From Clostridia bacterium (GTDB taxonomy: Bacteria > Bacillota > Clostridia > DUPQ01): a stretch of 34,746 nt of DNA. The position numbers and the translations under genes were made by a program. Under the pieces are notes generated by a model. It ran no database searches and was not told the DNA's origin. It saw only the letters and a program-made list of their open reading frames with translations. The first letter of the stretch is position 1, and each line of letters begins with the position of its first letter. Below are positions 12,991-34,479 of the stretch, in pieces. The DNA is taken from positions 1-34,746 of the forward strand of contig JAUVJE010000002.1 in the NCBI GenBank assembly GCA_030592355.1, given 5' to 3'.

Positions 12991-13019
12991 TTGAAACAAA
13001 CGTAGAAAAATTATATAAT
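12991..13019 (+). promoter_or_regulatory. Putative sigma-A promoter of the purine-catabolism operon
   Basis: TTGAAA (12991-12996), 17-nt spacer, consensus TATAAT (13014-13019), ~47 nt upstream of the ATG at 13067. Confidence 0.5.
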
Positions 13020-13066
13020 TTGTATGCGGATATTCACTAGGGAGAGCGTTTTCTTCAGGGGGGGCT

Positions 13067-14435: not shown

Positions 14436-14881
14436 AAATTAAAATTAAAATAAACGGAACCATAAAAACAATTAACGTGAAAGCTGATGAATACCTTGTG
14501 GATACTCTGAGAAACAATGGGTGTGTTAGTGTGAGAAGAGGATGCGACACCACCTCATGCGGGATTTGCACGGTACTTCTTGACGGAGCGCCGGTGGCCT
14601 CATGCAGCTATCTTTCATGCAGGGCTGACAGTCATGAGGTGACGACCGTTGAAGGTATTCAGGAAGAAGCTGCACTAATAGCAGATTTCTTCGGGCATGA
14701 AGGAGCTGACCAATGCGGATATTGCAATCCATCCATGGCACTCACATTGTATGCGATGAAACGGGAACTTAAAAATCCTGATGATGATGAAATACGCGCC
14801 TACCTGGTAGGCAATCTTTGCAGATGCTCGGGATATGTCGCCCAGCACAGGGCAATCAGGGCTTATCTGGAGGTGGAATAA
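14432..14881 (+). CDS. Mo-hydroxylase set 1, [2Fe-2S] (small) subunit
   Basis: 149 aa. Both Cys clusters are present (CDTTSCGICTV...C and CGYCNP...CRCSGY). ATGA overlap with the FAD subunit. Confidence 0.85.
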   Translation: MKIKIKINGTIKTINVKADEYLVDTLRNNGCVSVRRGCDTTSCGICTVLLDGAPVASCSYLSCRADSHEVTTVEGIQEEAALIADFFGHEGADQCGYCNPSMALTLYAMKRELKNPDDDEIRAYLVGNLCRCSGYVAQHRAIRAYLEVE

Positions 14882-17193
14882 TGAAATATGTAAATAAAAC
14901 CATACCGTCCGTTGACGGAAAAGGTCTTATGATGGGCAAACCCGGTTATACAGATGACCTTGCGGAACCCAATTCATTGATCGTAAGAGTTCTCAGAAGT
15001 CCGCATCCTTTTGCAAAAATCATAAAAATAAATAAAGAAAAAGCATTGACGCTTGAAGGGGTCGAATGTGTTCTTACACATAAGGATTTTAAAAGAATTG
15101 CCGTAACCAGGGCGGGACAGGGATATCCGGAACCCTCGCCTCATGATAAGTTTATATTGGACGACCATGTACGCCATATAGGAGACGAAGTAGCTGCCGT
15201 AGCGGCATGTGATAAGGAAACCGCGAAAAAAGCCCTGGAACTTATTGATGTTGAATACGAAGTTCTGGAACCGGTGCTTGATTTCGAAAAAGCGTATGAA
15301 AACAAAAATGTAATACACAGCGAACCGGAAATACACGAGATGTTTCCTATAGGCCTTGAGCCTCTTAAAAATGTAGCAGCATCATATATGATGAATGTGG
15401 GTGATGTGGATAAGACCCTTGAGGAATGTGATGTTATATTGGACACCCGGTTCTACACACAGGCTCAGGCCCATGTGATGATGGAACCTCATACCGCTAA
15501 TGCAAGAATCGACTATCAGGGAAGACTGGTGATGTATTCATCTACGCAAACCCCTATACATGTAAGAAGAATACTCTCCCATGCACTGGAATATCCGCTT
15601 AGTAAAATTCGTGTAATTAAACCGAGAATCGGAGGGGGATACGGAGGCAAACAATGTCTTCACGGCGAATTTTTAGTAGCTGCTGTCACTCTGAGAACCG
15701 GGAAACCTTCAAAAATAGTTTATACACGAAAGGAAGTTTTTGAATCCACATTTTCACGGCACCCAATGCGTTTTGATATAAAATTAGGGGCAATGAACGA
15801 CGGTACGCTAAAAGGCATAGATGTGGATGTTCTTTCTGACACAGGCGCTTACGGCGAACATGCCCTTACCGTATTTATGGTCGCCGGTTCAAAAGTATTC
15901 CCTTTGTATAATAAAGTGGATTCAGTTCGTTTCGGAGGGAAAGTTGTTTATACAAATCACACACCTGCAGGGGCTTTCAGAGGGTATGGAGCCATTCAGG
16001 GCAATTATGCATTAGAATCCGCAATTGATATGCTCTGCGATAAGATGAATATCGACCCCGTGGAATTCCGGATGAAAAATATGATAAAGGAAGGGGAGAC
16101 ATCGCCGATATTTGCGATAATGGGAGAGGGCACTGAAGGCACTGCGATGAACATGGAATCCTGCAAACTGGATTATTGCGTAAAAAGAGGTCTTGAAATT
16201 ATAAATTGGAAAGACAAATATCCTAAAAAGACAACTGAAGATGGAAAAGTAAGGGGAGTGGGAATGGCCATAGCAATGCAGGGCTCGGGGATACCGTATA
16301 TTGATATGGGCTCGGCCATGATAAAATTAAACGATGACGGGTTTTTCAATCTGATGGTAGGAGCCACGGAACTTGGACAGGGCAGCGATACGATTCTTGG
16401 ACAAATTGCCGCGGAAAGCCTTGGTGTCAATCCCGATAAAATAGTTATTTATTCATCTGACTCAGACTTGACCCCATTTGATACCGGTGCTTATGCCTCA
16501 AGTACTACTTATGTGTCCGGCAATGCCGTAAAACTTACCGCTGACAGGATGAAAGAAATGATTATAGAAGAAGGAGCGAAAGCGTTGGGAACACGTTTAG
16601 CTGAAACTGATTTTGATGGTAAAATAATTAAATCAGGCGATAAAGAAATGACCCTTGCAGAATTATCAAACCGTCTTTATTACAATGAAGATCAGAAACA
16701 ACTGATGGCCTGCGAGTCTTATGTAGGCACAAAATCCCCACCGCCGTTTATGGCAGGTTTTGCAGAGGTAGAGATTGATCCTGAAACAGGTAAAGTTGAT
16801 ATTGTTGATTACGCTGCAGTTGTGGATTGCGGGACTACAATTAACCCAGCCCTTGCCAGGGTACAGGTGGAAGGCGGATTGGTACAGGGCATCGGCATGA
16901 CTATGTACGAGGATGTGGTGTATACGTCAAATGGAGGCATGGTTACAAATAACATGATGAACTATCGTATTCCCACAAGAAAAGAAATAACTGATATGCA
17001 TGTGGAATTCGCCGACAGTTTTGAACCGTCGGGACCATATGGAGCAAAGTCGGTGGGTGAAATCGGGATAGATACACCGCCGGCAGCTATTACAAATGCA
17101 ATTTACAACGCAGTTGGAGTAAGAATCCAGGAACTTCCGGTAACGCCGGAAAAAGTGTTTATGGGAATATTGAAGCAAAAGGATAAGGAGTAA
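14881..17193 (+). CDS. Mo-hydroxylase set 1, molybdopterin-binding (large) subunit, xanthine dehydrogenase family
   Basis: Start at the ATG at 14881 (1-nt overlap with the upstream TAA). 770 aa. Motifs RIGGGYGGKQ, AGAFRGYGAIQ and GAKSVGEIG. Confidence 0.85.
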   Translation: MKYVNKTIPSVDGKGLMMGKPGYTDDLAEPNSLIVRVLRSPHPFAKIIKINKEKALTLEGVECVLTHKDFKRIAVTRAGQGYPEPSPHDKFILDDHVRHIGDEVAAVAACDKETAKKALELIDVEYEVLEPVLDFEKAYENKNVIHSEPEIHEMFPIGLEPLKNVAASYMMNVGDVDKTLEECDVILDTRFYTQAQAHVMMEPHTANARIDYQGRLVMYSSTQTPIHVRRILSHALEYPLSKIRVIKPRIGGGYGGKQCLHGEFLVAAVTLRTGKPSKIVYTRKEVFESTFSRHPMRFDIKLGAMNDGTLKGIDVDVLSDTGAYGEHALTVFMVAGSKVFPLYNKVDSVRFGGKVVYTNHTPAGAFRGYGAIQGNYALESAIDMLCDKMNIDPVEFRMKNMIKEGETSPIFAIMGEGTEGTAMNMESCKLDYCVKRGLEIINWKDKYPKKTTEDGKVRGVGMAIAMQGSGIPYIDMGSAMIKLNDDGFFNLMVGATELGQGSDTILGQIAAESLGVNPDKIVIYSSDSDLTPFDTGAYASSTTYVSGNAVKLTADRMKEMIIEEGAKALGTRLAETDFDGKIIKSGDKEMTLAELSNRLYYNEDQKQLMACESYVGTKSPPPFMAGFAEVEIDPETGKVDIVDYAAVVDCGTTINPALARVQVEGGLVQGIGMTMYEDVVYTSNGGMVTNNMMNYRIPTRKEITDMHVEFADSFEPSGPYGAKSVGEIGIDTPPAAITNAIYNAVGVRIQELPVTPEKVFMGILKQKDKE

Positions 17194-17197
17194 AAAA

Positions 17198-17824
17198 ATG
17201 GACAGAAAGAAAATATTAAAACTAGTTTCGCAAATTATATTTTTCGGAGCTTTATGGGGAATTACAGAAGCCACGCTTGGATATTTATTGCATTTCCTTC
17301 CACCAACAGTTGCGGGGATAATCATGTTTCCCATAGCGGCATTCATTCTTATTAAATCATATAAAGCGACAGGATCAAGAGCCGCGCTGATTTATATTGG
17401 TTTCGTAGCGGCAGGAATAAAAGCAGTTGACTTTTTACTACCGGGAATGATTGTATTCAAAACTATAAATCCTATGATTTCAATAGTCCTTGAAGCGCTG
17501 GTAGTTGCCGCTGCCTATCCGATGCTGAGCAATTTAAAAGCAGGATGGAAACTTTCAGGCGGTATTGCGGCAAGTGTGGGATGGCGTACGGGTTACATAA
17601 TATATATGGTCATTCAATATTTTATTACAGGGTTTGTATCAAGCTATATCTCAACACCGTTTTTCACAATTAATTTTATGCTGTTGAATGGTGTTCTAAG
17701 TGGAGTCCTGCTATTTGGAATGTTGATGCTGGAATCAAAAGTAAAGCTTAAAGCAATGAAATTCAGACCTGTTTATGCCCTTGCAGCGCTGGTGCTGGCC
17801 ATGGGCCTGCAACTGGTTATTTAA
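17198..17824 (+). CDS. Integral membrane protein, ~6-7 TM, unknown function
   Basis: 208 aa, almost entirely hydrophobic segments. AAGGAG RBS. Starts 5 nt after the Mo-subunit stop. No family motif recognised. Confidence 0.6.
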   Translation: MDRKKILKLVSQIIFFGALWGITEATLGYLLHFLPPTVAGIIMFPIAAFILIKSYKATGSRAALIYIGFVAAGIKAVDFLLPGMIVFKTINPMISIVLEALVVAAAYPMLSNLKAGWKLSGGIAASVGWRTGYIIYMVIQYFITGFVSSYISTPFFTINFMLLNGVLSGVLLFGMLMLESKVKLKAMKFRPVYALAALVLAMGLQLVI

Positions 17825-17830
17825 ATAAGC

Positions 17831-17856
17831 AAAAATTGTCCCTTTGGACAATTTTT
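17831..17856 (+). terminator. Hairpin after the membrane-protein gene (weak terminator or processing site)
   Basis: AAAAATTGTCC cttt GGACAATTTTT. The A5/T5 tracts form the base of the stem. An alternative pairing exists between TTGTCCC (17836-42) and GGGACAA (17858-64). Confidence 0.45.
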
Positions 17857-17885
17857 GGGGACAAATTTGTACTTGAGGAATATAA

Positions 17886-18707
17886 ATGAATATTTATAGT
17901 GAAATAAGCAAGCATATGGATTCGGGAACCGCATGTATATTAGCGACTGTAGTGGGAAAAAGCGGTGAAGGACCTGTAGAAGTCGGCAAGAAAATGATTG
18001 TGGGCTCAGACGGTATTGCGAAAGGAACGGTAGGCGGCGGTGCTCTTGAATTCTACGCCCGCGAACGCTGTAAAGAACTATTGGCAGACCGTAAAAATTT
18101 GCTGGAAAAATACTTGTTGAACGAAGGCGAAGTTATAAAAGATGCAAAGACTTTGCCTATGGTATGCGGTGGGGAGGTTTCAATTTTCTATGAGTATATC
18201 GGGCCGGATGCCTGCATATACATTTTCGGGGGAGGACACGTTGGACAGGCAACGGTTAATGTTTTAAAAACTATGAATTTCCACATAACCGTGATAGATG
18301 AAAGAAAAGCGGTTTATAATGCATTTAAAGGTGCAGACCGTAAGGTGAATATGTCTTTCACAGAGTTTATTGAGAGCGAAGGCATAGAGGAAGGAAGCTT
18401 TATCATAGTATGCACACCTTCGCATAAGCATGACTACAATGTGATTTATAAAGTCATTGAACTAGGACTTAAGCCCCAATATATCGGAATGTTGTGTTCA
18501 CCATCCAAATTAAATGATTTTTTGAGCAGGATTTACAAAAAATTCGGAAAGAATGCGGACCTTTCAAATCTCTATTCGCCGATTGGCCTTGATATAGGAG
18601 GAGGTTCCCCGGAGGAAATCGCCATATCTATAGTTTCAGAAATTCTGGTTGTAAACAATGGTAAAACCGGACATAAACACATGAGGGTCGGAGACTTCAA
18701 ATGGTAA
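17886..18707 (+). CDS. xdhC: XdhC/CoxI-family Mo-hydroxylase maturation protein
   Basis: 273 aa. N-terminal XdhC_CoxI pattern (ATVVGKSGEGPVEVGKKMIV...GTVGGGALE) and the Rossmann part IFGGGHVGQA. Confidence 0.8.
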   Translation: MNIYSEISKHMDSGTACILATVVGKSGEGPVEVGKKMIVGSDGIAKGTVGGGALEFYARERCKELLADRKNLLEKYLLNEGEVIKDAKTLPMVCGGEVSIFYEYIGPDACIYIFGGGHVGQATVNVLKTMNFHITVIDERKAVYNAFKGADRKVNMSFTEFIESEGIEEGSFIIVCTPSHKHDYNVIYKVIELGLKPQYIGMLCSPSKLNDFLSRIYKKFGKNADLSNLYSPIGLDIGGGSPEEIAISIVSEILVVNNGKTGHKHMRVGDFKW

Positions 18708-19189
18708 CGATTATAACCGGGCCGTTAAATTCAGGGAAAACCACCAGAGTGGTGGAAGAATATAGGAACGTGGCCAGGGGAGATGGTTTTGTTTCCTTAA
18801 AAAGAATGAACGGTAAAGTTGTCGAAGGTTTTGACCTGATGAGATTGTCTACCGGTGAAAAGAGACCTTTTATAAGGAGAATCGGCAGCGAACCTAAGAA
18901 CTGGGTGGAAAACTGCACGTTGGGACCTTATACATTTTCAGATGATGCCGTCGGGTGGGCTGCAATGCAGATTTCCGGATTTATAAGCAACGGTATTTCC
19001 CCTGTATATCTCGATGAAGTGGGCATCATGGAATTAGCCGGTAAATGTTTTTATAAGATTGTTAAAAAGATAGTAAACTCCGGCACGAACGCTTATATAT
19101 CGGTCAGAGACGAATCCCTTGAAGCCGTAATTGAAAAGCTTGAAATTGACGGAGCGAAAATAATCAAGATGGGAGACAGATATGCATGA
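18701..19189 (+). CDS. Small P-loop NTPase (THEP1/DUF2478-like), probable accessory protein
   Basis: 162 aa. Walker A GPLNSGKTT at residues 7-15 and Walker B-like VYLDEVG. 7-nt overlap with xdhC. Confidence 0.55.
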   Translation: MVTIITGPLNSGKTTRVVEEYRNVARGDGFVSLKRMNGKVVEGFDLMRLSTGEKRPFIRRIGSEPKNWVENCTLGPYTFSDDAVGWAAMQISGFISNGISPVYLDEVGIMELAGKCFYKIVKKIVNSGTNAYISVRDESLEAVIEKLEIDGAKIIKMGDRYA

Positions 19190-20477: not shown

Positions 20478-21742
20478 CAAATGTAAGAATTTTCGATTTG
20501 CAGAATTATTATGACAACGGATACATTATTTTTAATGAGAAAATAAAGGAAGTCGGCGACATGGCTGGCTTTAGGGACAATGGTTATGAAATTATAGATG
20601 GAACGGGACATCTTGCGATGCCGTCCCTGACAGTTGCTCATACTCACATATATTCAACATTCGCAAGGGGAATGGTTATTCCGTTCAATCCTGCGAATTT
20701 TCAGGAAATTCTGGAGCAGTTATGGTGGAAAATGGATTCACACCTTACCGGGGAAGATATATATATGAGTGGAATCGTCAGTGGAGTGGATTATGCGAAA
20801 AACGGTGTGACTACAGTTATTGATCATCACGCGGGCAAGAAGATTAAAGGGTCGTTGACGCTGCTTAAAAAAGCTGTTTGCGAAAAGGTCGGTTTAAGGG
20901 GTTCTTTTTGTTTCGAAACCAGCGACCGATTTGATGTAGACGCATGCATAAGTGAAAACAATAACAGCGCAGACATATTCGGGCTTCATGCATCTATGAC
21001 GCTATCTGACGACACTTTGATTAAAGTTAAGGATTCTTTAGGGGACAAACCGGTGCATATACATGCGGCTGAAAGCTGGATGGATCAGGAAAACTGCCTG
21101 TCTTATCACGGAGAACGGGTGATAGAAAGGTTGGACCGTCATGGTTTGCTTAATAAAAATTCCATACTGGCTCATTGCATTCATATAAATGAAGACGAGG
21201 CGGAAATCATTGAGAAGAACGGCTGTTGGGTAGCTTTGAATATTCAGTCGAATATGAATAATGCAGTCGGTTTGCCGGATTACAAAATGCTTAAAGAAAA
21301 GGGAATAAAATGTCTTATTGGCAACGACGGCATGTCAATGGGAATAACCGGTGAATGGATGTCCCTGTATCTTGCAATGAAACACAGATATTTATCCCAT
21401 ACTGCATTTGACATGTCGGATTTGCTCACGGTTATTGATAACAATAATAAATATGTAAACGAAACAATGGATATCAGTATCGGAAGGATTAAACCGGGAT
21501 ACGATGCAGATTTGCTGTCTATTGAATACGAACCGCCTACGCCCATAGGTAAAGACAATGCATTCGGTCATATTTTATTTGGTTTGAGCAGGGCGTTCAC
21601 ACCGGAACATGTATGGTGCAAAGGGAAGCATATTGTCAGACATTATCATGTAAGTGATGAGTTAGAGAAAAAATATAAAGAGGCGAAGAAGACTGCGGAA
21701 AAGCTTTGGGAAAGGATTAAGAGCGATAGTTATAATGGATAA
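20465..21742 (+). CDS. ssnA: SsnA-type aminohydrolase (amidohydrolase superfamily, chlorohydrolase/deaminase branch)
   Basis: 425 aa. Motifs HTHIYSTFARGM, VHIHAAES, AHCIH and GNDGMS. 13-nt overlap with the upstream gene. Confidence 0.7.
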   Translation: MFALTNVRIFDLQNYYDNGYIIFNEKIKEVGDMAGFRDNGYEIIDGTGHLAMPSLTVAHTHIYSTFARGMVIPFNPANFQEILEQLWWKMDSHLTGEDIYMSGIVSGVDYAKNGVTTVIDHHAGKKIKGSLTLLKKAVCEKVGLRGSFCFETSDRFDVDACISENNNSADIFGLHASMTLSDDTLIKVKDSLGDKPVHIHAAESWMDQENCLSYHGERVIERLDRHGLLNKNSILAHCIHINEDEAEIIEKNGCWVALNIQSNMNNAVGLPDYKMLKEKGIKCLIGNDGMSMGITGEWMSLYLAMKHRYLSHTAFDMSDLLTVIDNNNKYVNETMDISIGRIKPGYDADLLSIEYEPPTPIGKDNAFGHILFGLSRAFTPEHVWCKGKHIVRHYHVSDELEKKYKEAKKTAEKLWERIKSDSYNG

Positions 21743-22808
21743 TCTTAAAACAAAATTTGACGGGTTGGTTCTTTCTAATCCCCTGATGCCGGCATCGGGT
21801 CCATTAACAGGTGATTTTGAAGGTTTGCAATTCATCCGGGAACAGGGAGTAGGCGCGGTAGTAACGAAAACTATTTCTATAAAAGCTGCAAAAGTGCCGC
21901 GGCCATGCATATACGGGGGCAGGGATTATATACAGAACTCTGAACTGTGGTCCGAATACCCGATGGAGAAATGGACGAAAGAAATTCTTCCTCAGTTTAT
22001 GAAAATTAAAAAAGTTCCGTTGATTGTGAGTGCAGGATATTCAGCTGAAGACATGGAGGTGCTGATACCAGAATTGGATAAATTTGCTGATGCGTTTGAA
22101 ATTTCAACCCACTATGTGGGGAAAAATCTGGATGTCATAGCCAATACCGTAAAGACAATCAGAAAAAACACTGACAAGCCGGTATATATGAAAATAAGTC
22201 CCCACATACCCAATCCTGTGGAATTTGCAAAAGCAGTAAGGGACGCAGGTGCCACCGGTGTAGTAGCAATTAATTCTCTCGGACCAACCATGAATATTGA
22301 TATTGCATCCCGCACGGTGAACTATGGAGGAAAAAGCGGTTTTTCCTGGACATCGGGACCTGTTATTAAAAACCTTGCCCTTGCTATAGTTTATACAATT
22401 AAATCAGCACTGCCGGATTTCACTGTCATAGGAACAGGGGGAATACAAAACGCCGATGATATAATTGAGTTTTTGCTGGCCGGAGCAAACGGAGTCCAGA
22501 TGCTGTCCGGGGCTTTGCTGAAAGGCAAAAATCTTTATTCGGAAATAATAAAAGACCTACCGGGTGCTTTAGAAAAACATGGTTTTAACAGCATAGAACA
22601 GATAAGGAAGACAGAATTAAAAATAGAGTCGGGGTATATCCCGAAGGTTCCGACACTTATCGAGGATAAATGTACCCATTGCAGATTATGTGAAAAAATA
22701 TGCCCTTATTTTGCTATATATTACGATGGCATAATACGGTTTGACGGTGAAAAATGCTTTGGCTGCGATTTGTGTATATCAAAGTGTCCGGCCGGGGCTT
22801 TGAAATGA
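21735..22808 (+). CDS. Dihydroorotate/dihydropyrimidine dehydrogenase-like flavoprotein with C-terminal 2x[4Fe-4S] domain (PreA-like)
   Basis: 357 aa. DHOD-fold N-terminus (LSNPLMPASGPL, VVTKTIS, GTGGI) and a C-terminal CTHCRLCEKICP ... CFGCDLCISKCP. Confidence 0.7.
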   Translation: MDNLKTKFDGLVLSNPLMPASGPLTGDFEGLQFIREQGVGAVVTKTISIKAAKVPRPCIYGGRDYIQNSELWSEYPMEKWTKEILPQFMKIKKVPLIVSAGYSAEDMEVLIPELDKFADAFEISTHYVGKNLDVIANTVKTIRKNTDKPVYMKISPHIPNPVEFAKAVRDAGATGVVAINSLGPTMNIDIASRTVNYGGKSGFSWTSGPVIKNLALAIVYTIKSALPDFTVIGTGGIQNADDIIEFLLAGANGVQMLSGALLKGKNLYSEIIKDLPGALEKHGFNSIEQIRKTELKIESGYIPKVPTLIEDKCTHCRLCEKICPYFAIYYDGIIRFDGEKCFGCDLCISKCPAGALK

Positions 22809-22821: not shown

Positions 22822-24912
22822 ATGTCCGGTATTAGTAAATCCATCCCGAAACAGGATACGGCGGAAAAAACTTCCGGCGAAGCTCTGTACATAGGCGATA
22901 TCAAAGTTGACGGCATGCTCCATGCCAAGACTCTTAGGTCGACAAAAACCAGGGCATTGATTAAGGAAATAAAACTTCCGGATCTTCCGGAGGGATATCA
23001 TATTGTAGATTACAGGGATATTCCGGGGGAAAATTACGTAAAAATTATTTTTGAAGATATGCCTGTATTTGCAGAAAAAACTGTAAATTATTATGGGGAG
23101 CCAATTCTTTTGGTTATCGGTTCTGATAAACAGCAAATACTGAAATTGATTGATGCTATTGAGGTAATATATGAACCGCTGGAACCTCGCTACAAGTATA
23201 CGAAAAGTGTAGTTCATTATGAATATGAAAAGGGCAATACAGACACTGCTTTCGCCAATGCCGTAAGGACAATCAACGGGGAGTACAAAACCGGATATCA
23301 GGAGCACATTTACTTAGAACCTCAGGGTGTTATAAGTTTGTATGATGAGAATAAAATAACAATATTGGGATCCATGCAGTGCCCGTATTATATAAAAAAC
23401 GCAGTTATGCAGGTTTTAAACGCTGATGAAGACGGTGTGCGAGTGCAACAGGCTACGACAGGGGGAGCCTTTGGAGGCAAAGAGGAATTCCCTTCTCTTA
23501 TAGCATGCCAGGCTGCAGTTGCTTCGGCAAAACTGAAAAAACCTGTAAGTCTTATATACGATCGTATGGAAGATATAGAAACAACCACAAAAAGACATCC
23601 GTCTCTCATTAAGTTTACCGCAGCCATCGGCCCAGATTTTACAGTTGACGGAATCAGAGCGCATGTCTCTCTTGACAGCGGTGCTTATATAGGGTTGTCC
23701 GGGGTAGTGCTGCAGAGGGCTATGATTGCCGCAAGCGGAGTATACACAATAAAAAATTTATCCGTTTCCGGGGATGTTTACGAAACCAATTCAGTGCCTA
23801 ACGGAGCCTTCCGTGGATTCGGTGCTCCGCAGATGTTCTTTGCCGTCGAAATGTTTATGGAACATATAGCAAAGGAACTAAAATATAGTCCACTTGAGTT
23901 CAAGTTGAATTATTTGGCAAAAACGGGCGATGCCACTTCAACGGGAGGACAGTTCAGGAATCCAATAATAATGCGGGATATGGTTCATAAAGCATGGGAA
24001 ATATCGGATTACCGGAGAAAAACCACGGAATTTTCGCAACTTGGTGTATATAAGGGAATCGGCATGTCATTATTTCTGCATGGGTGCGGATTTACGGGCA
24101 GCGGAGAACAGAAGCACATTAAGGCAGTTGTCAGACTTCGGAAAAATAAGGATGATACGGTAACAATTCTTGCGTCCAGCACAGACATGGGACAGGGCGC
24201 TGCCACCACACTAAGGAAAATAGCTGCCGGGATACTCGAATTGTCCGTTGAACAAATCATATACAATAAACCCGATACCGACCATGTGCCGGATTCCGGA
24301 CCAACGGTGGCATCGCGCACGATAATGATAGTGGGAGGGCTTATAGCCAGGGCGGCTGTGGACCTTAAAGAAAAGTGGAAACCCGGAGAAGAAATAATTG
24401 TGGAACAACGTTATAAACAACCGGAATTTATAAAATGGGATGAAGATAAATTGCGCGGCGATGCTTATCCCGCATACTCATGGGGAGTTGTCGTCAGCGA
24501 AGTGGAGGTAAATCCCGTCACATGGACAGTGGAGCTGAAAGGATTATGGTCTGTGTATGATATTGGTATAGCCATTGATGAAAGAATTGTCATAGGGCAA
24601 ATCGAGGGAGGGCTTCTTCAGGGAATAAGTTACGGCATGATGGAAGTTATGGAATGCAAAGAAGGTATTATTCAACAAAGAAATGTGACGGACTACATAA
24701 TACCAACCGCTGCCGATAGTATAAATATGCATACGGTTTTGATGGATAACTCATATCCTCTGGGACCGTATGGAGCAAAAGGCGCGGGAGAATTGCCATT
24801 GGTGGGCGGAGCGCCTGCAGTTGCCATGGCGATTGAAAACGCAATCGGGAAAAAAGTTACCAGAATACCGGTAACGCCGGAATATATAATGGAGCTGATG
24901 AAAAATGGCTGA
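22822..24912 (+). CDS. Mo-hydroxylase set 2, molybdopterin-binding (large) subunit, xanthine dehydrogenase family
   Basis: 696 aa. Motifs TTGGAFGGKEEF, NGAFRGFGAPQ and GAKGAGELP. GAGGAG RBS. Confidence 0.85.
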   Translation: MSGISKSIPKQDTAEKTSGEALYIGDIKVDGMLHAKTLRSTKTRALIKEIKLPDLPEGYHIVDYRDIPGENYVKIIFEDMPVFAEKTVNYYGEPILLVIGSDKQQILKLIDAIEVIYEPLEPRYKYTKSVVHYEYEKGNTDTAFANAVRTINGEYKTGYQEHIYLEPQGVISLYDENKITILGSMQCPYYIKNAVMQVLNADEDGVRVQQATTGGAFGGKEEFPSLIACQAAVASAKLKKPVSLIYDRMEDIETTTKRHPSLIKFTAAIGPDFTVDGIRAHVSLDSGAYIGLSGVVLQRAMIAASGVYTIKNLSVSGDVYETNSVPNGAFRGFGAPQMFFAVEMFMEHIAKELKYSPLEFKLNYLAKTGDATSTGGQFRNPIIMRDMVHKAWEISDYRRKTTEFSQLGVYKGIGMSLFLHGCGFTGSGEQKHIKAVVRLRKNKDDTVTILASSTDMGQGAATTLRKIAAGILELSVEQIIYNKPDTDHVPDSGPTVASRTIMIVGGLIARAAVDLKEKWKPGEEIIVEQRYKQPEFIKWDEDKLRGDAYPAYSWGVVVSEVEVNPVTWTVELKGLWSVYDIGIAIDERIVIGQIEGGLLQGISYGMMEVMECKEGIIQQRNVTDYIIPTAADSINMHTVLMDNSYPLGPYGAKGAGELPLVGGAPAVAMAIENAIGKKVTRIPVTPEYIMELMKNG

Positions 24913-25378
24913 AATCAAATTTGTATTAAACAATGAGAAAGTCCAAATTGACAGAGACCCGACAATGCGTCTCCTTGATGTGCTTCGTGATGATTTCGGG
25001 CTTATAGGAGTAAAAGAAGGTTGCGGCGAAGGAGAATGCGGTGCCTGCTCGGTACTCATCGACAGCGAAGTGGCAAGTTCCTGCATTGTGCCCCTTGGGA
25101 ATGTGTTCGACAAGAAAATTGTGACGATAGAAGGATTTAAAAAAACTGACAGATACAAGGTACTTCATGAGGCTTACGAGGAGGAGGGTGCAGTACAATG
25201 TGGATTCTGCATACCCGGAATGCTGCTGGCATCTGAGTCGCTTTTAAATAAAAATCCCCATCCTTCAGAGGATGAAATACGCGACGGATTGTCCGGGAAT
25301 CTTTGCAGATGCACAGGATACAACATGATTGTAAGGGCTGTACAAAGAGCCGCTGAAACAGGTGAGGGATTATGGTAA
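24905..25378 (+). CDS. Mo-hydroxylase set 2, [2Fe-2S] (small) subunit
   Basis: 157 aa. CGEGECGACSV...C and CGFCIPG...CRCTGY. 8-nt overlap with the large subunit. Confidence 0.85.
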   Translation: MAEIKFVLNNEKVQIDRDPTMRLLDVLRDDFGLIGVKEGCGEGECGACSVLIDSEVASSCIVPLGNVFDKKIVTIEGFKKTDRYKVLHEAYEEEGAVQCGFCIPGMLLASESLLNKNPHPSEDEIRDGLSGNLCRCTGYNMIVRAVQRAAETGEGLW

Positions 25379-26247
25379 AATCATATTTCCCCAAAACATA
25401 CCGGCAGGCACTTGAGATTCTTGCAAAAAGCAATCCTGCAATTATTGCAGGCGGCACGGATCTCATGGTAAAAAAACGCAGATGGTCCGGTTTATCCCCC
25501 GGATTTTCAGAAGATATGATTTTTATTTCACAACTCAGGGAATTAGATTACATCCGCAGGGAAAATGGGAAAATATACATCGGTGCAAATGTAACGCTGG
25601 AAAAATTGCTTCATGACAAAGACATACCGGAGATTCTTAAAAAAGCAGTGGCATCCATGGCATCTCCCGGTGTCAGGCATACCGCGACATTGGCCGGCAA
25701 TATAGCAAATGCATCACCGGCCGGAGATACGCTGCCTGTTCTATATATTTTAAATGCCCGGATAGTTATCGGAAGCCTTGAAAGAGAGAATGTAATTCAA
25801 ATCGAAGATTTCATACTCGGTCCGGGTTCTATTGATTTGCGAAGAAGTGAAATAATAAAGGAAATTATAATAGATGATACTGATTTTGATTTTATGATGT
25901 ATGAAAAAGTCGGCGGCAGGAAATCTGATGCTATTTCCAAGGTATCTTTTGCAGCTGCGGTATCTTCGGTATTTGATATGGTTACTGACATGAGGATAGC
26001 TATAGGGGCTGTGGCTCCGACCGTCGTACGGATAAGAGAATTTGAACTTCAGTTGATAGATACACCGGTAAATGAGATGGCGCAAATATCTGGTTTGGTG
26101 AAAGATTTATATAAACCATTGATAAAACCTATAAGCGATCAAAGATCCACAGCTGACTACCGGAAAATGTGTGTGTTGAATTTTATAGAAGAATTTCTTA
26201 ATAAAGCCGGAAAAAGAATAGGTAAGGAGAAAGATATTGATTGGTGA
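25372..26247 (+). CDS. Mo-hydroxylase set 2, FAD-binding (medium) subunit
   Basis: 291 aa. PAIIAGGTDLMV FAD_binding_5 motif and a C-terminal CO-dehydrogenase flavoprotein-like part (SDQRSTADYR). Confidence 0.8.
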   Translation: MVKSYFPKTYRQALEILAKSNPAIIAGGTDLMVKKRRWSGLSPGFSEDMIFISQLRELDYIRRENGKIYIGANVTLEKLLHDKDIPEILKKAVASMASPGVRHTATLAGNIANASPAGDTLPVLYILNARIVIGSLERENVIQIEDFILGPGSIDLRRSEIIKEIIIDDTDFDFMMYEKVGGRKSDAISKVSFAAAVSSVFDMVTDMRIAIGAVAPTVVRIREFELQLIDTPVNEMAQISGLVKDLYKPLIKPISDQRSTADYRKMCVLNFIEEFLNKAGKRIGKEKDIDW

Positions 26248-26773
26248 AAGAATCAGACACAGAAGAAATGAAATTAAAATGAGCATGAAAGTCCTTGCTG
26301 AAAAAACAGGACTTACATCAGGTTTTATAAGTCAGGTTGAACGCGAACTTGCCGAACCCTCCATAACCTCGCTTCGTAAAATTGCAGAAGCACTGGGAGT
26401 AGCGGTTTTTTATTTTTTTACTGAGAAGAAAAACACAGGAATTGTAGTTAGAAATAATAAAAGGCAAAGTAGAAACTTCCCAAAATCCCACCTTACCTAT
26501 GAATTGTTATCGCCGGACTTGAACAGACAGATGGAGATGTTCATGGCCTCTTTGGAACCCGGAGCCGAGACTTGCGACGAACCTCTTTCCCATAATGGGG
26601 AAGAAGTGACCCATGTGCTTGAAGGAACCATGTGGATTAAAATCGGGAAAGATGAATACACATTGGAAACAGGTGACACTATTTACTATTTTTCGAGTAT
26701 GCCTCACAAAATAGTAAATACCGGGAGTATCATGCTTCGTTTTATATCAACAATAACGCCCCCGGCGTTTTAA
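26237..26773 (+). CDS. XRE-family HTH + cupin domain transcriptional regulator
   Basis: 178 aa, TTG start behind AAGGAGA. HTH segment MKVLAEKTGLTSGFISQVERE. Cupin part HNGEEVTHVLEGTMWI...GDTIYYFSSMPHKIVN. Confidence 0.8.
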   Translation: MIGERIRHRRNEIKMSMKVLAEKTGLTSGFISQVERELAEPSITSLRKIAEALGVAVFYFFTEKKNTGIVVRNNKRQSRNFPKSHLTYELLSPDLNRQMEMFMASLEPGAETCDEPLSHNGEEVTHVLEGTMWIKIGKDEYTLETGDTIYYFSSMPHKIVNTGSIMLRFISTITPPAF

Positions 26774-26827: not shown

Positions 26828-28537
26828 ATGAATACTATGCAGCTGGCAAAAGTCGCACGAGGCGATAAAAAAGCAGATTTAGTTCTGAAAAATTGTACTA
26901 TTGTTAATGTTTTCAACCACAAGGTGGAGCACGGTGATATTGCAATTACCGACGGTATCATCGCCGGCATCGGGAAATATTCAGGGAGAAAGGAAATTGA
27001 CCTTGAAGGCGGATTTGTCTGCCCCGGATTTATAGACGGCCATGTGCATATTGAATCTTCTATGCTTACACCCCCGCAATTTGCAAAAACGGTTATTCCC
27101 AAGGGCACAACCACAGTAATAGCGGACCCCCATGAAATTGCAAACGTTTGCGGTATAGACGGTATTGAATTTATGCTTGACAGCAGCGAAAAGCTTCCTT
27201 TGGATGTATTTATTATGCTTCCTTCCTGCGTTCCGTCAACAGACTATGAAAATTCCGGCGCGGTTCTTTCCGCGGAGGACTTAGCTCCGTTAATGGACCA
27301 CGAGCGCGTTATTGGACTTGGAGAAATGATGAATTATCCCGGTGTAATCAATGGTATTAAGAAAATCCATGACAAGTTGAATATCGCCGGGGGACGGATG
27401 ATTGACGGACATGCTCCGGGAGTTACCGGTAAAGAACTGAACGCCTATGTTGCATCGGGTATAAAGACAGACCATGAATGCACGGCAGTAGACGAAATGG
27501 AAGAAAAACTGAGACGGGGAATGTATATTATTATCAGGGAAGGTTCTGCAACAAGAAACCTGGATACTCTGATTGCGGGTGTCAGCAAAGACAATCTGAG
27601 AAGAATGCTTTTTTGCACCGACGATAAACATCCCAAGAGTATAAAGAACGAAGGTCATATCAATTACAATGTTAAAAGAGCCGTAAGCCATGGGGTTGAC
27701 GCCATTGACGCGATTTTAATGGCAACACTGAATACCGCAGAATGCTACGGACTTCGGGACAGGGGCGCAATAGCACCTGGCTACATAGCAGATATTCTGG
27801 TTTTGGATAATCTTAAAAACTTTTCAGTTATGCAGGTTTTCAAAAAAGGAAAGCTGGTAGCTGCAAACGGAGAAGCAAAATTCGGAGCGCGTGCAGTGGC
27901 TGACCAACGTGTGTTAAATACAGTCGTACTCAATGACAATATGAAAATTAATCTTGATTTACACCTGAAATCGGATGTAGTTAAAGTAATCCAGATAATT
28001 GAAGACAATATAATAACTAAAAAAGTTATCAGAAAAGTAGATGTAGATGACGGATATTATAAAAACAATCCAAAGCTGGACATACTGAAACTGGCTGTTA
28101 TAGAAAGGCATAAGAAAACCGGTAATATCGGACTTGGCCTGGTAGAAGGCTACGGATTGAAAAATGGCGCAGTAGCCCTGACAATTGCCCATGACTCTCA
28201 CAATATTATAGTTGTCGGTGACAATGACAGGGATATGTTGGAAGCGGTCAGGGAATTACAGAAATGCGAGGGTGGAATAACCATATGCAGCGGCGGAAAG
28301 GTTATGGGAAGCCTGACTCTGGAGGTCGGTGGATTGATGACTGATTCATCAATTGAATCAGTGGAAGATAAAGTTGATGAGTTGGTGGGAATTGCGGAGA
28401 AAATGGGCATTAACAAAGGATTGGATCCATTTTTAACACTATCCTTCCTCTCGCTTCCAGTAATACCCGAACTTAAACTAACCGACCGAGGCCTTTTTGA
28501 CGTAACAACCTTCGGCTTTGTGGGCACGGAAGAGTAG
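26828..28537 (+). CDS. ade: Adenine deaminase
   Basis: 569 aa, the canonical length. PGFIDGHVHIESSML metal motif. GGAGGAAATAG RBS. Confidence 0.85.
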   Translation: MNTMQLAKVARGDKKADLVLKNCTIVNVFNHKVEHGDIAITDGIIAGIGKYSGRKEIDLEGGFVCPGFIDGHVHIESSMLTPPQFAKTVIPKGTTTVIADPHEIANVCGIDGIEFMLDSSEKLPLDVFIMLPSCVPSTDYENSGAVLSAEDLAPLMDHERVIGLGEMMNYPGVINGIKKIHDKLNIAGGRMIDGHAPGVTGKELNAYVASGIKTDHECTAVDEMEEKLRRGMYIIIREGSATRNLDTLIAGVSKDNLRRMLFCTDDKHPKSIKNEGHINYNVKRAVSHGVDAIDAILMATLNTAECYGLRDRGAIAPGYIADILVLDNLKNFSVMQVFKKGKLVAANGEAKFGARAVADQRVLNTVVLNDNMKINLDLHLKSDVVKVIQIIEDNIITKKVIRKVDVDDGYYKNNPKLDILKLAVIERHKKTGNIGLGLVEGYGLKNGAVALTIAHDSHNIIVVGDNDRDMLEAVRELQKCEGGITICSGGKVMGSLTLEVGGLMTDSSIESVEDKVDELVGIAEKMGINKGLDPFLTLSFLSLPVIPELKLTDRGLFDVTTFGFVGTEE

Positions 28538-28562: not shown

Positions 28563-28591
28563 TTGAAGAGTGTTGAGATGTGTGGTAAAAT
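28563..28591 (+). promoter_or_regulatory. Putative sigma-A promoter for the PLP-enzyme/ygeY unit
   Basis: TTGAAG (28563-28568), 17-nt spacer, TAAAAT (28586-28591). Confidence 0.45.
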
Positions 28592-28624
28592 TTAGTAGCA
28601 CTTAATATATTTAGTGTTACTAAA
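28591..28624. promoter_or_regulatory. 12-bp inverted repeat abutting the -10 box (candidate operator)
   Basis: TTTAGTAGCACT - 10 nt - AGTGTTACTAAA (11/12 complementary), at the predicted transcription start region. Confidence 0.4.
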
Positions 28625-28650
28625 TTATAAGTAAATTGAGGTCAGGGTAT

Positions 28651-29883
28651 ATGGTATATATAAAAGGGTATGAGTGCACAATTTGCAATTCACAGTATGA
28701 AGTGAATGAAAAACTTCATACCTGTCCTAAGTGCGGCGAAAAAGGCATATTGGAAATCATTTACGACTATCAGAAAATAAAATCAAAAATGACAAAGTCA
28801 TATTTTGCAAACTGCACGGATAATTCTATGTGGCGATACCATTATACAATGTCTGTAGAGCCTGGATTAAGAAGCAAGTATCTTAGAGTTGGCGGAACTC
28901 CGTTATATAAGGCAAAACATCTTTGCGATATTATGGGATTTAAGAAAATTTATATAAAAGACGAAGGTGTGAATCCCACCGCATCATTGAAAGACCGGGC
29001 TTCAGCCGTGGCGGTGGCCGATGCTGTTGCACTTAAGGCTGCTATAATAAGCTGCAGTTCCACGGGGAATGCAGCATCGTCGCTTGCGGGGAATGCAGCG
29101 AGAATTGGAATGAATACAGTAATTTTTGTGCCTGAAAGAACACCGGAAGGAAAGCTTTCGCAATTGTTGATTTTCGGAGCAAAAGTTATAGTGGTGAAGG
29201 GCAGTTACAGAGATGCTTTTGAGATGTCGCAAAAGGCGATAAAAAAATGGGGATGGTACAATAGGAATGCGGCAATCAATCCGCATCTGGTGGAAGGGAA
29301 AAAAACAGTAGCCCTTGAAATTGCTGAGCAGATGGATTGGAAAGTGCCTGATTGGGTTGCAGTATCTGTAGGCGACGGCTGCACGATTGCGGGAGTTTAT
29401 AAAGGCTTTCACGATCTTTTACAGCTGGGAATAATCGACAGGATACCAAAGCTCCTGGGCGTGCAGTCAGACGGCTGCAGTCCCTTTGTCAACGCATATG
29501 TGAAAAAACAGAAAATAGAACCAACTGAAGAAAATACCATCGCAGACAGTATTTCCGTAGGAATTCCCAGAAATCCGGTTAAAGCAATAAGGGCGGTTGA
29601 AAAATCAGGAGGTTCCTGGATAGCGGTTTCCGACCACAATATATTAAAAGCCATGAAAACACTTGGAAGCAACGAAGGAATTTTCACCGAACCGGCGGGT
29701 GCAGCAAGCCTTGAAGGAGCCGAAGAAGCTTTGAAACTTGGGATAATAAAACCCGATGAAACCATATGTATCATTGCAACAGGTAATGGTCTTAAAGATA
29801 CAAAAAATGCCTTGGAAATTGCAGGCAAACCGATATATATTGAACCCGATATGAATGAATTAATAAAAATAATAGGGAAATAA
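28651..29883 (+). CDS. Threonine-synthase-like fold-type II PLP enzyme with N-terminal zinc ribbon
   Basis: Start at the ATG at 28651. CTIC...CPKC zinc-ribbon. PLP-lysine motif NPTASLKDR. Glycine-rich SVGDGCTIAG loop. Confidence 0.7.
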   Translation: MVYIKGYECTICNSQYEVNEKLHTCPKCGEKGILEIIYDYQKIKSKMTKSYFANCTDNSMWRYHYTMSVEPGLRSKYLRVGGTPLYKAKHLCDIMGFKKIYIKDEGVNPTASLKDRASAVAVADAVALKAAIISCSSTGNAASSLAGNAARIGMNTVIFVPERTPEGKLSQLLIFGAKVIVVKGSYRDAFEMSQKAIKKWGWYNRNAAINPHLVEGKKTVALEIAEQMDWKVPDWVAVSVGDGCTIAGVYKGFHDLLQLGIIDRIPKLLGVQSDGCSPFVNAYVKKQKIEPTEENTIADSISVGIPRNPVKAIRAVEKSGGSWIAVSDHNILKAMKTLGSNEGIFTEPAGAASLEGAEEALKLGIIKPDETICIIATGNGLKDTKNALEIAGKPIYIEPDMNELIKIIGK

Positions 29884-29907
29884 CCCTTTAATACAGGAGG
29901 ACAAATA

Positions 29908-31275
29908 ATGAACGGCATACCCTTTGGACCAACTTATGATGAAATGCTTGAGAGGAATCTTATAGATCCCGAAATCAAAGGGAAAGCAGAGAAAGCAATA
30001 AGCGATGAATTAGATCCTATAAATCTTTTTAACATCACTTGGAAAGATACAGATAATAATGTCAGAAAGATAGTGCTTCCACCGGAACTTACCGGTATTG
30101 ACGCCAATATTGTAGTGCTTCTCGGTAAAGATTTTCCTTCCGGCTCACACAAAGTGGGTCCTGCATATTCCACTCTCATAGAAGGCTGCGTGGATGGTGA
30201 CATACTTCCGGGACAACACACGATACTTGGGCCTTCAACGGGAAATTTCGGCATAGGCGTATCATATATATGCAACTTAATGGGGTATGATGCAATAGTA
30301 ATCATGCCTGACAATATGAGCAAAGAACGTTATGAGAGAATTGAGAGATACGGAGCTGAACTTGATCTTACGCCGGGAACGGAGTCTGATGTTATATTAA
30401 CCTTGCAAAGAACATATGAATTGGCGAAAGATCCCAAAATGCGGTCGCTGGCGCAGTTTGAATTGCTGCCCAACTATCGCTTTCACAGACATGTAACGGG
30501 AAACTCCGCCATAGAGGCGGTTGAAGGCATAGGTAATGGCAGAATAGCATGTTTTGCATGTGCTCCGGGCTCCGCCGGCACCATTGCCGCCGGAGACCAG
30601 ATAAAAGAAACCTTTCCTGAAGTCAGGATTGCCGCCCTTGAGCCTTACGAGTGCTCTACACTTACAAACGGAGGCCGTGGGCAGCACCGGATAGAGGGGA
30701 TAGGCGACAAGATGTGCACGCTGATACACAATGTTTTAAACACTGATTTTGTAGTACTTATACGCGATGATGATTGTGTAAGGGGACTTAAGGTTATACA
30801 CGATGGTGCCGATATTTTGGCTGAATCAGGAATTGATATGGAAACGATTTTGTATATGAAGGATCTTTTCGGTGTATCGGGTATCTGCAACATCATAGGT
30901 TCCATTAAGATGGCAAAACACCTGCACCTGGGCCCGGGAGACAATGTTGTTACTGTAGCAACCGACGGCTATGACAGATATGAATCCGTCATTGAAGATC
31001 TTGACCGCCGTTATCTGGAAGTAGAAGATTTTGTACTGAGACGTTGGAAAAAGGATGTGTTCGACAATGCTGATGAGAGCAACATAATGGATTTCCGCCA
31101 AAGCGATAAAAAGGAACAGCTTTTTCAACAGAAAGAAAAGGACTGGATCCCGTTCGGATATACAAAAGAGTACATGGATTCTATGAAAGATCAGAATTTC
31201 TGGGATGCTGAATACGCAAAAGTAAAATACTATGATAAAAAAATCAAAGAGATGAGGAGGCAGCCCAATGATTGA
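29908..31275 (+). CDS. Fold-type II PLP-dependent enzyme (Trp-synthase-beta/cysteine-synthase superfamily), specificity unknown
   Basis: 455 aa. [13 protein letters not shown] (TrpB-like GSHK lysine motif), [12 protein letters not shown], and a long C-terminal extension. AGGAGG RBS. Confidence 0.6.
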
Positions 31276-32538: not shown

Positions 32539-33522
32539 ATGAAAACTGAATTTAAGGGGAAACATTTTATATCATTGCAAGACTGGACAAAAGAAGAGCT
32601 GGACACGCTGCTTGAGGTGTCCTATGATTTGAAAAAGAAATTCGCAAATGGAGTGCAGACACCCTATTTGCCATATAAAACCATGTTCCTGATGTTCTTT
32701 GAACAGTCAACCAGGACAAGGAATTCAATGGAAGCGGGAATTGCACAGCTGGGCGGCCATGGTAATTTTCTTGATGTCAGTACAATGCAGATATCCCATG
32801 GGGAGTCTGCAAAAGACACGGCGATAATACTTTCCAGTTACGGGCACGGCATAGCCTGTAGGAATTGTTTCTGGGAAGTTGGAAATAAATACCTTCGGGA
32901 AATGGCGGAATATTCGACTGTTCCCGTTATGAGTCTTCAGTGCGACCTGTATCATCCCATGCAGGGTATCGCCGACCTAATGACCATACAGGAAAAAACC
33001 AAAACAACCAGAAATCTGAAGGTTTCTATAATTTGGGCATATGCAACCAGCCACAAAAAACCGATTTCGGTTCCGCTGACACAGGCGCTTCTGTTTCCAA
33101 GATACGGAATGGATGTCACTCTGGCATATCCAAAAGGATATGACCTTCCGGATTGGGCGATTGCACAGGCAAGGGAAAACGCAGAAAAGAACAATGGTAA
33201 ATTTAGGATAACCCACAATATGGAAGAGGCTTACATAGATGCAGATGTAGTTATTCCTAAAAATTGGGGTAGTTGGGTAAATAACCAGAGCAGCGAAGTT
33301 GTTGATGATTTGTTGGAATCTTACAAAGGTTGGAAATGTACTGAAGAAATGATGGCCCTGGCAGCTAAAAATGTAATGTACATGCATGCGCTGCCTGCAG
33401 ACAGGGGCAATGAGGTGGAAGATTCCGTAATAGACGGACCGCATTCAATAGTTTATGACGAAGCGGAAAACCGGCTGCACACCGCAAAGGCTGTAATGAT
33501 GCTTACAATGGGTGATAAGTAA
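32539..33522 (+). CDS. ygeW: YgeW-like carbamoyltransferase (ATCase/OTCase superfamily)
   Basis: 327 aa. Motifs STRTR, LQCDLYHPMQGIADL, WAYATSHKKPISVP, YGMDVTLAYPKGYDLP and HALPADRGNEV. The middle motifs match my recollection of E. coli YgeW. Confidence 0.75.
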   Translation: MKTEFKGKHFISLQDWTKEELDTLLEVSYDLKKKFANGVQTPYLPYKTMFLMFFEQSTRTRNSMEAGIAQLGGHGNFLDVSTMQISHGESAKDTAIILSSYGHGIACRNCFWEVGNKYLREMAEYSTVPVMSLQCDLYHPMQGIADLMTIQEKTKTTRNLKVSIIWAYATSHKKPISVPLTQALLFPRYGMDVTLAYPKGYDLPDWAIAQARENAEKNNGKFRITHNMEEAYIDADVVIPKNWGSWVNNQSSEVVDDLLESYKGWKCTEEMMALAAKNVMYMHALPADRGNEVEDSVIDGPHSIVYDEAENRLHTAKAVMMLTMGDK

Positions 33523-33531: not shown

Positions 33532-34479
33532 ATGGGAAAATTGGCCGTAATAGCCATAGGAGGCAACTCCCTTATAAAGGACAAACAGCATATGCAGGTC
33601 GACGATCAGTATGATGCAATCTGCGAAACGGTGAAATACATTACTGATATAATCGAAGAGGGTTATGAAGTTGTAATAACCCACGGCAATGGTCCCCAGG
33701 TGGGATTCATCATGCGCAGGTCTGAAATAGCTGAAGAAGTAGAACATATGCATCCTGTTCCTCTTGTCAGTTGTGATGCGGACACACAGGGTGCCCTTGG
33801 TTATCAGATTCAGCAGGCATTCCATAATGAATTTACGAAACGGAGCATCAAAAAGAATGCGGTAACAATTGTAACGCAGGTAGAAGTTGATGAAAATGAT
33901 CCCGCATTTAAGAACCCCGCCAAACCTATTGGCTTATTTCATAATGACGCACAGGTGAAACGGCTTAGAAAAGACCATCCCGATTGGGTGATGACTATGG
34001 ATTCAGGCAGGGGATACAGGCGGGTAGTACCGTCACCCATGCCAAAGAAAATAGTTGAAATAGACGCCATTGAGAATCTTGTTAATTCCGGATTCACGGT
34101 AATAGCAGTTGGTGGCGGCGGTATTCCCGTGGTTGTTGATAAAAACAACGGTTACAGGGGAGTGAATGCAGTAATCGATAAAGATCATGCATCAGGAATG
34201 CTAGCGACAAAACTTGGAGCGGATGTTTTTATTATATTAACAGCGGTTGAAAATGTATGTATCAATTTCGGAAAGCCGAATGAAAAAAGAATCAAAGCGA
34301 CTGATATAAATAGTATTAAAGAACTAAGGGAACAAGGCCACTTTGCACCCGGAAGTATGCTTCCCAAGATAAATGCTGCCATGACTTATCTTGAAAACGG
34401 CGGAGAAAAAGCCATAATAACATCACCTGAAAATCTGCTTAAAGCAGTACGCGGTGAAGCAGGCACAATTATAATATGA
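33532..34479 (+). CDS. arcC: Carbamate kinase
   Basis: 315 aa. AIGGNSL and ITHGNGPQVG motifs. AAAGGAGAG RBS. Confidence 0.9.
   Translation: MGKLAVIAIGGNSLIKDKQHMQVDDQYDAICETVKYITDIIEEGYEVVITHGNGPQVGFIMRRSEIAEEVEHMHPVPLVSCDADTQGALGYQIQQAFHNEFTKRSIKKNAVTIVTQVEVDENDPAFKNPAKPIGLFHNDAQVKRLRKDHPDWVMTMDSGRGYRRVVPSPMPKKIVEIDAIENLVNSGFTVIAVGGGGIPVVVDKNNGYRGVNAVIDKDHASGMLATKLGADVFIILTAVENVCINFGKPNEKRIKATDINSIKELREQGHFAPGSMLPKINAAMTYLENGGEKAIITSPENLLKAVRGEAGTIII

Follow-up and report, generated by a model that had tools for sequence, protein, structure and literature searches.

The stretch of DNA analysed here, referred to as the window, comprises 34,746 nucleotides from a Clostridia bacterium and corresponds to contig C82 of a 2.18-Mb metagenome-assembled genome which is 86.9% complete. 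Between an adenine deaminase gene and ygeY, it carries two adjacent genes for pyridoxal phosphate (PLP) enzymes of fold-type II. One product resembles threonine synthase (ThrC) and is termed ThrCL, while the other resembles cysteine synthase (CysK) and is termed CysKL. In the host, and in most YgeY-containing genomes of its phylum, the best explanation is that this pair takes the place of YgeX (DpaL) at the end of the reductive uric-acid pathway. Within a known pathway, the pair is thus judged to be an undescribed variant of the terminal part, and the variant which prevails in this phylum.

Profile searches place a single long purine-degradation cluster on the forward strand, from approximately 13.0 kb to the end of the window. 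It contains the following features (aa, amino acids; Mo, molybdenum; ORF, open reading frame; HTH, helix-turn-helix; OTC, ornithine carbamoyltransferase):

13067..19189, forward strand: mocA, FAD subunit, XdhD-like Mo subunit, 208-aa ORF, xdhC and 162-aa ORF
19182-20477, forward strand: HyuA-like hydantoinase
20465-21742, forward strand: SsnA-like amidohydrolase
21735..22808, forward strand: PydA/DHODH-like reductase, in the position of YgfK
22822..26247, forward strand: second molybdenum hydroxylase set, with Mo, 2Fe-2S and FAD subunits
26237..26773, forward strand: HTH-cupin (PuuR-like) regulator, kept in many related clusters
26828..28537, forward strand: adenine deaminase (TIGR01178, 654.6 bits)
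28563..28591, forward strand: promoter-like TTGAAG-17-TAAAAT ahead of ThrCL
28651..29883, forward strand: ThrCL, ThrC-like fold-type II PLP enzyme, 410 aa
29908..31275, forward strand: CysKL, CysK-like PLP enzyme, 455 aa
31268..32488, forward strand: ygeY, M20 ureido-group hydrolase (TIGR03526, 716 bits; 72% identity to E. coli YgeY)
32539..33522, forward strand: OTC-like carbamoyltransferase in the position of YgeW, below the OTC, putrescine carbamoyltransferase and YgeW cut-offs
33532..34479, forward strand: carbamate kinase, equivalent of YqeA

The linkage of ssnA, hyuA, ygeY, a carbamoyltransferase, xanthine dehydrogenase (XDH) genes and a UacX-type reductase shows that the cluster is of the reductive (2,8-dioxopurine) uric-acid type, in a variant form. 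UacX has been described for C. difficile by Li et al. (10.1101/2025.05.19.654654); its correspondence to the PydA/DHODH-like reductase at 21735..22808 is a match made in the present analysis.

Work from 2025 on E. coli, C. sporogenes and C. difficile established the reductive uric-acid pathway. Urate is reduced to 2,8-dioxopurine, followed by a second ring reduction, and the rings are opened by SsnA and HyuA to give 2,3-diureidopropionate. The two ureido groups are stripped by YgeW and YgeY, and the resulting 2,3-diaminopropionate (DAP) is converted to pyruvate and ammonia by YgeX in the last step. An R (D) configuration was proposed for the ureido intermediates, and the E. coli YgeX enzyme has been reported as equally active on both DAP enantiomers. 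The ThrCL-CysKL pair is unmentioned in this work (10.1101/2025.05.19.654654; PMC12990295), and no publications on it were found in the literature. One pathway study scored any neighbourhood PF00291 gene as “YgeX”. In C. sporogenes, dpaL shows a 59-fold induction by urate according to a supplementary table. Among the annotation rows listed for this species there is no ThrCL, and the only thrC is of the long type and uninduced by urate.

ThrCL starts with an ATG preceded by GAGG at a distance of 9 nt; a TTG at 28636 is a less likely start. The translation bears out the initial annotation of a threonine-synthase-like protein, with an NPTASLKDR motif holding the PLP lysine K114 and an N-terminal zinc ribbon (CTIC...CPKC; C9-x2-C12...C25-x2-C28). 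Membership of the fold-type II PLP enzymes is supported by a score of 251.7 bits against PF00291 with K114 present. ThrCL passes the threonine synthase model TIGR00260 (206.5 bits, cut-off 167.1) and falls below the cut-off of its closest equivalog, NF006050 (294.3 bits, cut-off 303). The closest solved relatives are the threonine synthases of Aquifex (2ZSJ), M. tuberculosis (2D1F), Thermus (1UIM) and Bacillus (6CGQ), with E-values of 4e-67 to 6e-52. The PLP lysine motif and the overall fold are shared with these enzymes, whereas the zinc ribbon, the purine-cluster context and the presence of a separate hom-thrC-thrB in the host set ThrCL apart.

Alignment of ThrCL to the four solved enzymes in Thermus numbering, which correctly recovered K61, revealed a further difference. 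The residues T88, S155, R160 and N188, which are presumably the binders of the substrate phosphate, are kept in all four solved ThrCs and in two housekeeping ThrCs, and are replaced in ThrCL by A141, A208, L213 and D242. What was computed is the contrast in conservation. Within the ThrCL family (65 members), T88 is replaced by Ala in 65/65, S155 by Ala in 64/65, R160 by Leu or Met in 65/65 and N188 by Asp in 65/65, together with Q164K and a one-residue insertion at S155A. The four ribbon cysteines are invariant across the family. Six more distant ThrCLs, one of them from Cloacimonadota, keep the two Ala and the Asp and have Leu, Cys or Thr at the R160 position. The pocket which would hold the phosphate in ThrC contains Asp, Leu and Lys in ThrCL, and would be better suited to a substituent of the amino or ureido kind.

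The housekeeping thrC of the host is found elsewhere and is divided between two contig ends, with hom-thrC on C215 and thrC-thrB on C37; the canonical residues are present in both fragments. The two thrC halves (loci L006 and L007) overlap at model positions 147-181, so that C215 and C37 are probably adjacent in the genome. ThrCL is therefore neither the sole copy nor placed in a biosynthetic context, and the possibility that it is the housekeeping threonine synthase fails. Owing to the loss of four conserved ThrC residues and to the separate hom-thrC-thrB operon, ThrCL is, as judged from its sequence, no threonine synthase despite its annotation.

CysKL was correctly described at the outset as a 455-aa PLP protein with a GSHK-type lysine motif, a long C-terminal tail and an 8-nt overlap with ygeY, which starts at 31268. 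The PLP lysine is K82 and the Asn loop reads STGNF; with K82 present and 90.3 bits against PF00291, it also belongs to the fold-type II PLP enzymes. The description of the motif as TrpB-like holds for the His-Lys dyad but does not extend to the family, as no NCBIfam TrpB family, whether TrpB or TrpB2, was matched at E <= 0.001. CysKL is likewise below the cut-offs of the CysK/CysM models TIGR01139 (129 against 351 bits), TIGR01136 (132 against 344) and TIGR01138 (88.6 against 394), and a true cysK with 398.9 bits is present elsewhere in the host genome.

The closest solved relatives of CysKL are CysK and beta-cyanoalanine synthase (8SRT, 9JXU, 3VC3), with an E-value of 3e-31, 24-30% identity and a TM-score of approximately 0.85 over some 310 residues. 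The PLP lysine, Asn loop, phosphate loop, N1 serine and aminoacrylate-type motifs are common to both, although the lysine motif is SHKVGP in CysKL and S(I/V)KDR in CysK, and the loop is STGNF rather than TSGNT. CysKL is also longer, by approximately 60 residues at the N-terminus and 95 at the C-terminus, and these extensions contain invariant Trp. In the predicted structure (mean confidence, pLDDT, 94) only the core matches CysK and beta-cyanoalanine synthase, while residues 1-60 and the helical region of approximately 360-455 are without match in solved CysK structures. W45, W413 and W432 in these extensions are invariant even among relatives at 25-35% identity. Close relatives number in the thousands, with approximately 75% identity over distant Bacillota lineages. 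Distant relatives carry generic names, and look-alikes in the Atlas are termed ‘putative cysteine synthase’. One relative with 34% identity is attributed in the records to the anaerobic protist Aduncisulcus paluster (P0261/P0418), where gene transfer or contamination is possible. Three loci seemed to hold a fusion of CysKL and YgeY, but a stop codon separates the two genes; the gene contexts of lone CysKL genes (L049, L053, L136-L140) yielded no functional hint.

Neither protein is an orthologue of DpaL, contrary to one outcome which would have overturned the initial annotation. Against the DpaL models TIGR01747, TIGR03528 and NF006058, with cut-offs of 274-532 bits, no score exceeded 55.6 bits: ThrCL reached 55.6 and CysKL 26.8 bits where the cut-off is 276, and the score against TIGR03528 was 22.7 where 532 is needed. 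There is no DpaL in the host genome, of which 86.9% is represented, the best genome-wide match being 27.8 bits. The thresholds for cysteate synthase (85.7 against 324.9 bits), SbnA (70.9 against 349.95) and CBS (70.9 against 510.25) were also missed. Together with TrpB and OrtB, SbnA and cysteate synthase belong to the same PLP superfamily as the pair; the latter two act on C3 amino acids which carry a leaving group in the beta position. No OrtB-type neighbours (ortA/ord/oraSE) were found in any locus examined.

Like the pair, YgeX of E. coli (b2871) belongs to the fold-type II PLP enzymes, and its gene neighbours ygeY and ygeW in a reductive uric-acid cluster. YgeX is a single protein where the pair is two, and it is non-orthologous, with 23% identity over part of ThrCL. 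The lysine region NAFKMLGG, which the initial annotation gave for YgeX, is indeed found in the E. coli protein around K77. Another difference lies in the loop, which reads TTDGNH in YgeX and includes Asp120, the second catalytic base of the E. coli enzyme. A Thr occupies this position in both ThrCL (STGNA) and CysKL (STGNF).

The phyletic pattern was studied in 401 genomes of the window's phylum, 75 of which have a strong YgeY. The pair occurs without DpaL in 54 of these, together with DpaL in 13, and is absent from five with DpaL and three with neither. YgeX is consequently a minority solution in the sample (18/75, against 67/75 for the pair). ThrCL, at 47% identity or more, is present in 77 genomes, 76 of which also have a YgeY-like gene, and in 68/75 of the strong-YgeY genomes. 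CysKL was detected in 58 genomes at the strict threshold. When three subfamilies are counted, a CysKL accompanies ThrCL in 75/77 genomes; the third subfamily has 35-40% identity and usually adjoins ThrCL and ygeY. An apparent mutual exclusion of CysKL and DpaL, and an apparent 17 genomes with neither, proved to be artefacts of too strict an E-value. The third subfamily fills both groups of seemingly CysKL-less ThrCL genomes, 16/17 of those without DpaL and 12/12 of those with it. No CysKL was found in the five E. coli-like genomes with YgeY and DpaL and without ThrCL. DpaL was not found in ten further pair genomes reached through their loci, several of them complete; these include complete Desulfitobacterium, Neomoorella and Izemoplasma-type genomes, Vallitalea okinawensis and an isolate of Gemmiger formicilis.

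Conservation of the neighbourhood, which had been put forward as a check, was found among 80 loci, the best of at least 587 matching stretches from a collection with one genome per species. Of these 80, 71 contain ThrCL, 58 ygeY, 58 a carbamoyltransferase and approximately 50 XDH subunits, the loci without these genes being mostly short contigs. ThrCL relatives often share contigs with CysKL relatives, and the pair lies inside the purine clusters of Vallitalea, Paradesulfitobacterium and Izemoplasmataceae. Gene order differs, examples being ThrCL-CysKL-ygeY-OTC, as in the window; YgeW-CysKL-carbamate kinase-ThrCL-ygeY; and, in Moorellaceae, regulator-CysKL-XDH-ThrCL-hyuA, with ygeY elsewhere in the genome. 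This variation between lineages points to functional selection rather than to common descent of a single operon. In Cloacimonadota, a CysKL with 35% identity lies between carbamate kinase and XDH genes, near YgfK, ygeY, three carbamoyltransferases and ThrCL. Desulfitobacteriia have near-identical clusters with YgeX after CysKL (L029, L051, L061) or without it (L054), and DpaL is absent from the genome of the latter.

From these results, ThrCL and CysKL are best explained as two separate and probably catalytically competent PLP enzymes which are co-inherited and dedicated to the reductive purine pathway. The computed bases for this are the family placement, the loss of ThrC residues, the separate housekeeping genes, the neighbourhood and the phyletic pattern; the substrate, product and division of labour proposed below are deductions. 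The balance tips slightly towards the pair performing the terminal C3 amino-acid step, from DAP to pyruvate, in two PLP reactions. In this scheme YgeY and the carbamoyltransferase would remove the two ureido groups and release DAP, which the pair would turn into pyruvate and ammonia through two PLP steps where YgeX needs one. One enzyme would prepare the substrate by racemisation of D- to L-DAP or by beta-replacement, the split thought most likely, and the other would carry out an alpha,beta-elimination through an aminoacrylate intermediate. Such an elimination is known in the CysK family, and L-substrates are typical of CysK- and ThrC-type enzymes. As the intermediates are proposed to be of the D (R) form, the co-inheritance of two enzymes would be explained if racemisation or beta-replacement came first and an L-specific elimination second. 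The requirement of PLP chemistry for a free alpha-amino group would limit the substrates to DAP and albizziin (3-ureidoalanine). Since 54/75 genomes hold every other pathway enzyme and no DpaL, the simplest account is that the pair consumes DAP; and as there are YgeX-only genomes without the pair and pair-only genomes without YgeX, each looks sufficient alone.

The claim that an atypical PLP pair replaces YgeX is partly supported, by the lack of a DpaL match in the host, in the ten other pair genomes and in the 54 YgeY genomes. Several observations weigh against a simple replacement. DpaL is held besides the pair by 13/75 YgeY genomes, so the pair may do something which YgeX does not. The two even share one cluster in G304 (in a fetched locus), in G018 (by match coordinates) and in three of the 80 loci, which argues against a simple one-for-one swap. 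The occurrence of ThrCL tracks that of YgeY in genomes with and without DpaL, and in G201 ThrCL lies in a second, paralogous ring-opening cluster away from DpaL. CysKL of the core and second subfamilies occurs without ThrCL in 11/58 genomes, nine of which also have no YgeY, suggesting some role of CysKL outside the purine pathway. The counts are to be read with the interrelatedness of the sampled genomes, which overstates their independence, and with the search for the third CysKL subfamily having covered 37 selected genomes. A distinct or additional role of the pair is accordingly quite possible.

The alternative which takes up these observations places the pair in the purine pathway at a step other than that of YgeX, with DAP removed by YgeX or another enzyme. 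The pair may then act on albizziin or an amino-ureido substrate, invert the stereochemistry ahead of YgeY, or use beta-replacement to channel the C3 unit into serine or cysteine. This is rather unlikely, though it is favoured by the 13 genomes with both systems, sometimes in one cluster, and by the frequent position of ThrCL beside ygeY or hyuA and of CysKL beside a carbamoyltransferase. The CysK family also includes users of ureido nucleophiles, such as O-ureido-L-serine synthase (3X43), which is among the CysKL matches. It would, however, leave the 54 genomes without a candidate DAP enzyme, and the need for a free alpha-amino group restricts the available PLP substrates to albizziin and DAP. 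A YgeY-like match in 76/77 ThrCL genomes further implies that the ureido group is presumably still hydrolysed off. An obligate complex, in which ThrCL and CysKL form one heteromeric PLP enzyme, is improbable. The presence of CysKL in 75/77 ThrCL genomes, the adjacency of the genes in many clusters and the conserved terminal extensions of CysKL, which have no counterpart in solved CysK structures, would all fit such a complex. The active-site motifs are nevertheless complete in both proteins, other genes separate the pair in several cluster types, and CysKL occurs in 11 genomes without ThrCL. A structure prediction for the complex scored 0.00, which counts neither way on binding.

Two readings remove the pair from C3 catabolism altogether. 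A function in the maturation of selenium-dependent molybdenum hydroxylases, for example through a selenocysteine-like compound, is highly improbable. The YgeY and SsnA models, by their names, mark the cluster as a selenium-linked hydroxylase neighbourhood, CysK-type enzymes can use selenide, and the pair co-occurs with XDH genes with or without DpaL. Yet E. coli has no pair and none is seen among the C. sporogenes rows listed, while both have active enzymes of this kind; ThrCL tracks YgeY rather than the XDH genes, and the consumption of DAP would go unexplained. Least probable of all is an ordinary threonine synthase and cysteine synthase that happen to lie beside purine genes. Public records do call ThrCL a threonine synthase, in line with its score against TIGR00260, and it is the sole match to this model in two Izemoplasma-type genomes. 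This reading is countered by the four lost ThrC residues, the separate hom-thrC-thrB and cysK of the host, the scores of CysKL far under every CysK/CysM cut-off, and a purine-cluster linkage which holds between phyla.

The reductive uric-acid pathway is being pursued for urate-lowering probiotics. Annotations routinely misname the proteins of the pair threonine synthase and cysteine synthase, and surveys which use ygeX as a marker, or which count any PF00291 neighbour as YgeX, can mis-score organisms with the pair. Its function, once known, would complete the pathway for most anaerobes carrying it and would assign roles to two large, highly conserved protein families. It also bears on the stereochemistry of the intermediates; a racemase with an L-specific beta-lyase, if true, would settle the question of D or L forms. 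A broader proposal, in which the pair both brings chemistry new to the anaerobic uricolytic pathway (a DAP/albizziin racemase and an L-specific beta-lyase, or another C3 fate) and constitutes the terminal module which prevails over YgeX in Bacillota and related anaerobes, is tentative and leans towards doubtful. If the pair does prevail in this way, gut species such as Gemmiger formicilis would be included.

Upstream of ThrCL, the gene unit had been credited with its own promoter. The hexamers at 28563..28591 are present but do not exceed chance, with one found against 1.1 expected in shuffled sequences, and this claim is not upheld. Directly after the promoter-like site there is an inverted repeat with 11 of 12 positions matching (TTTAGTAGCAC...GTGTTACTAAA; approximately 28590-28625), which could be a candidate operator for the HTH-cupin regulator.

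Downstream, the carbamoyltransferase at 32539-33522 differs from YgeW, with 34% identity to the E. coli protein. Enzymes of the window type share 70-90% identity between distant lineages, and related clusters have either this type or a true YgeW (65-67% identity to the E. coli protein). In the Izemoplasmataceae locus L012, a block of ygeY, an OTC-like gene and a cytidine/guanine-type deaminase is found twice in tandem (11356-17389), either through duplication or as an assembly artefact. Some genomes contain two paralogous purine-type clusters (L133 and L134 of G201, L126, L127, L131). In the second cluster, YgeY is represented by a paralogue with 38% identity to the E. coli protein, accompanied by another carbamoyltransferase and by an SsnA-like amidohydrolase with 22-26% identity to E. 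coli SsnA. HyuA was unmatched in the 20-kb stretches of several clusters with this second SsnA-like gene, which may replace it.

At the start of the window's cluster, the XdhD-like subunit of the first Mo-hydroxylase has 36% identity to E. coli XdhD, and the ORFs at 17198-17824 (208 aa) and 18701-19189 (162 aa) have no NCBIfam match at E <= 1e-10. Cold-seep metagenome runs are the best holders of the window DNA, and no RNA runs are listed among the holders. The region before the purine cluster contains an AmmeMemoRadiSam system (3697-6932), with protein A fused to a dioxygenase-like domain and a radical SAM enzyme, followed by the branched-chain amino-acid genes ilvN, ilvC, leuA and cimA (7109-11872).

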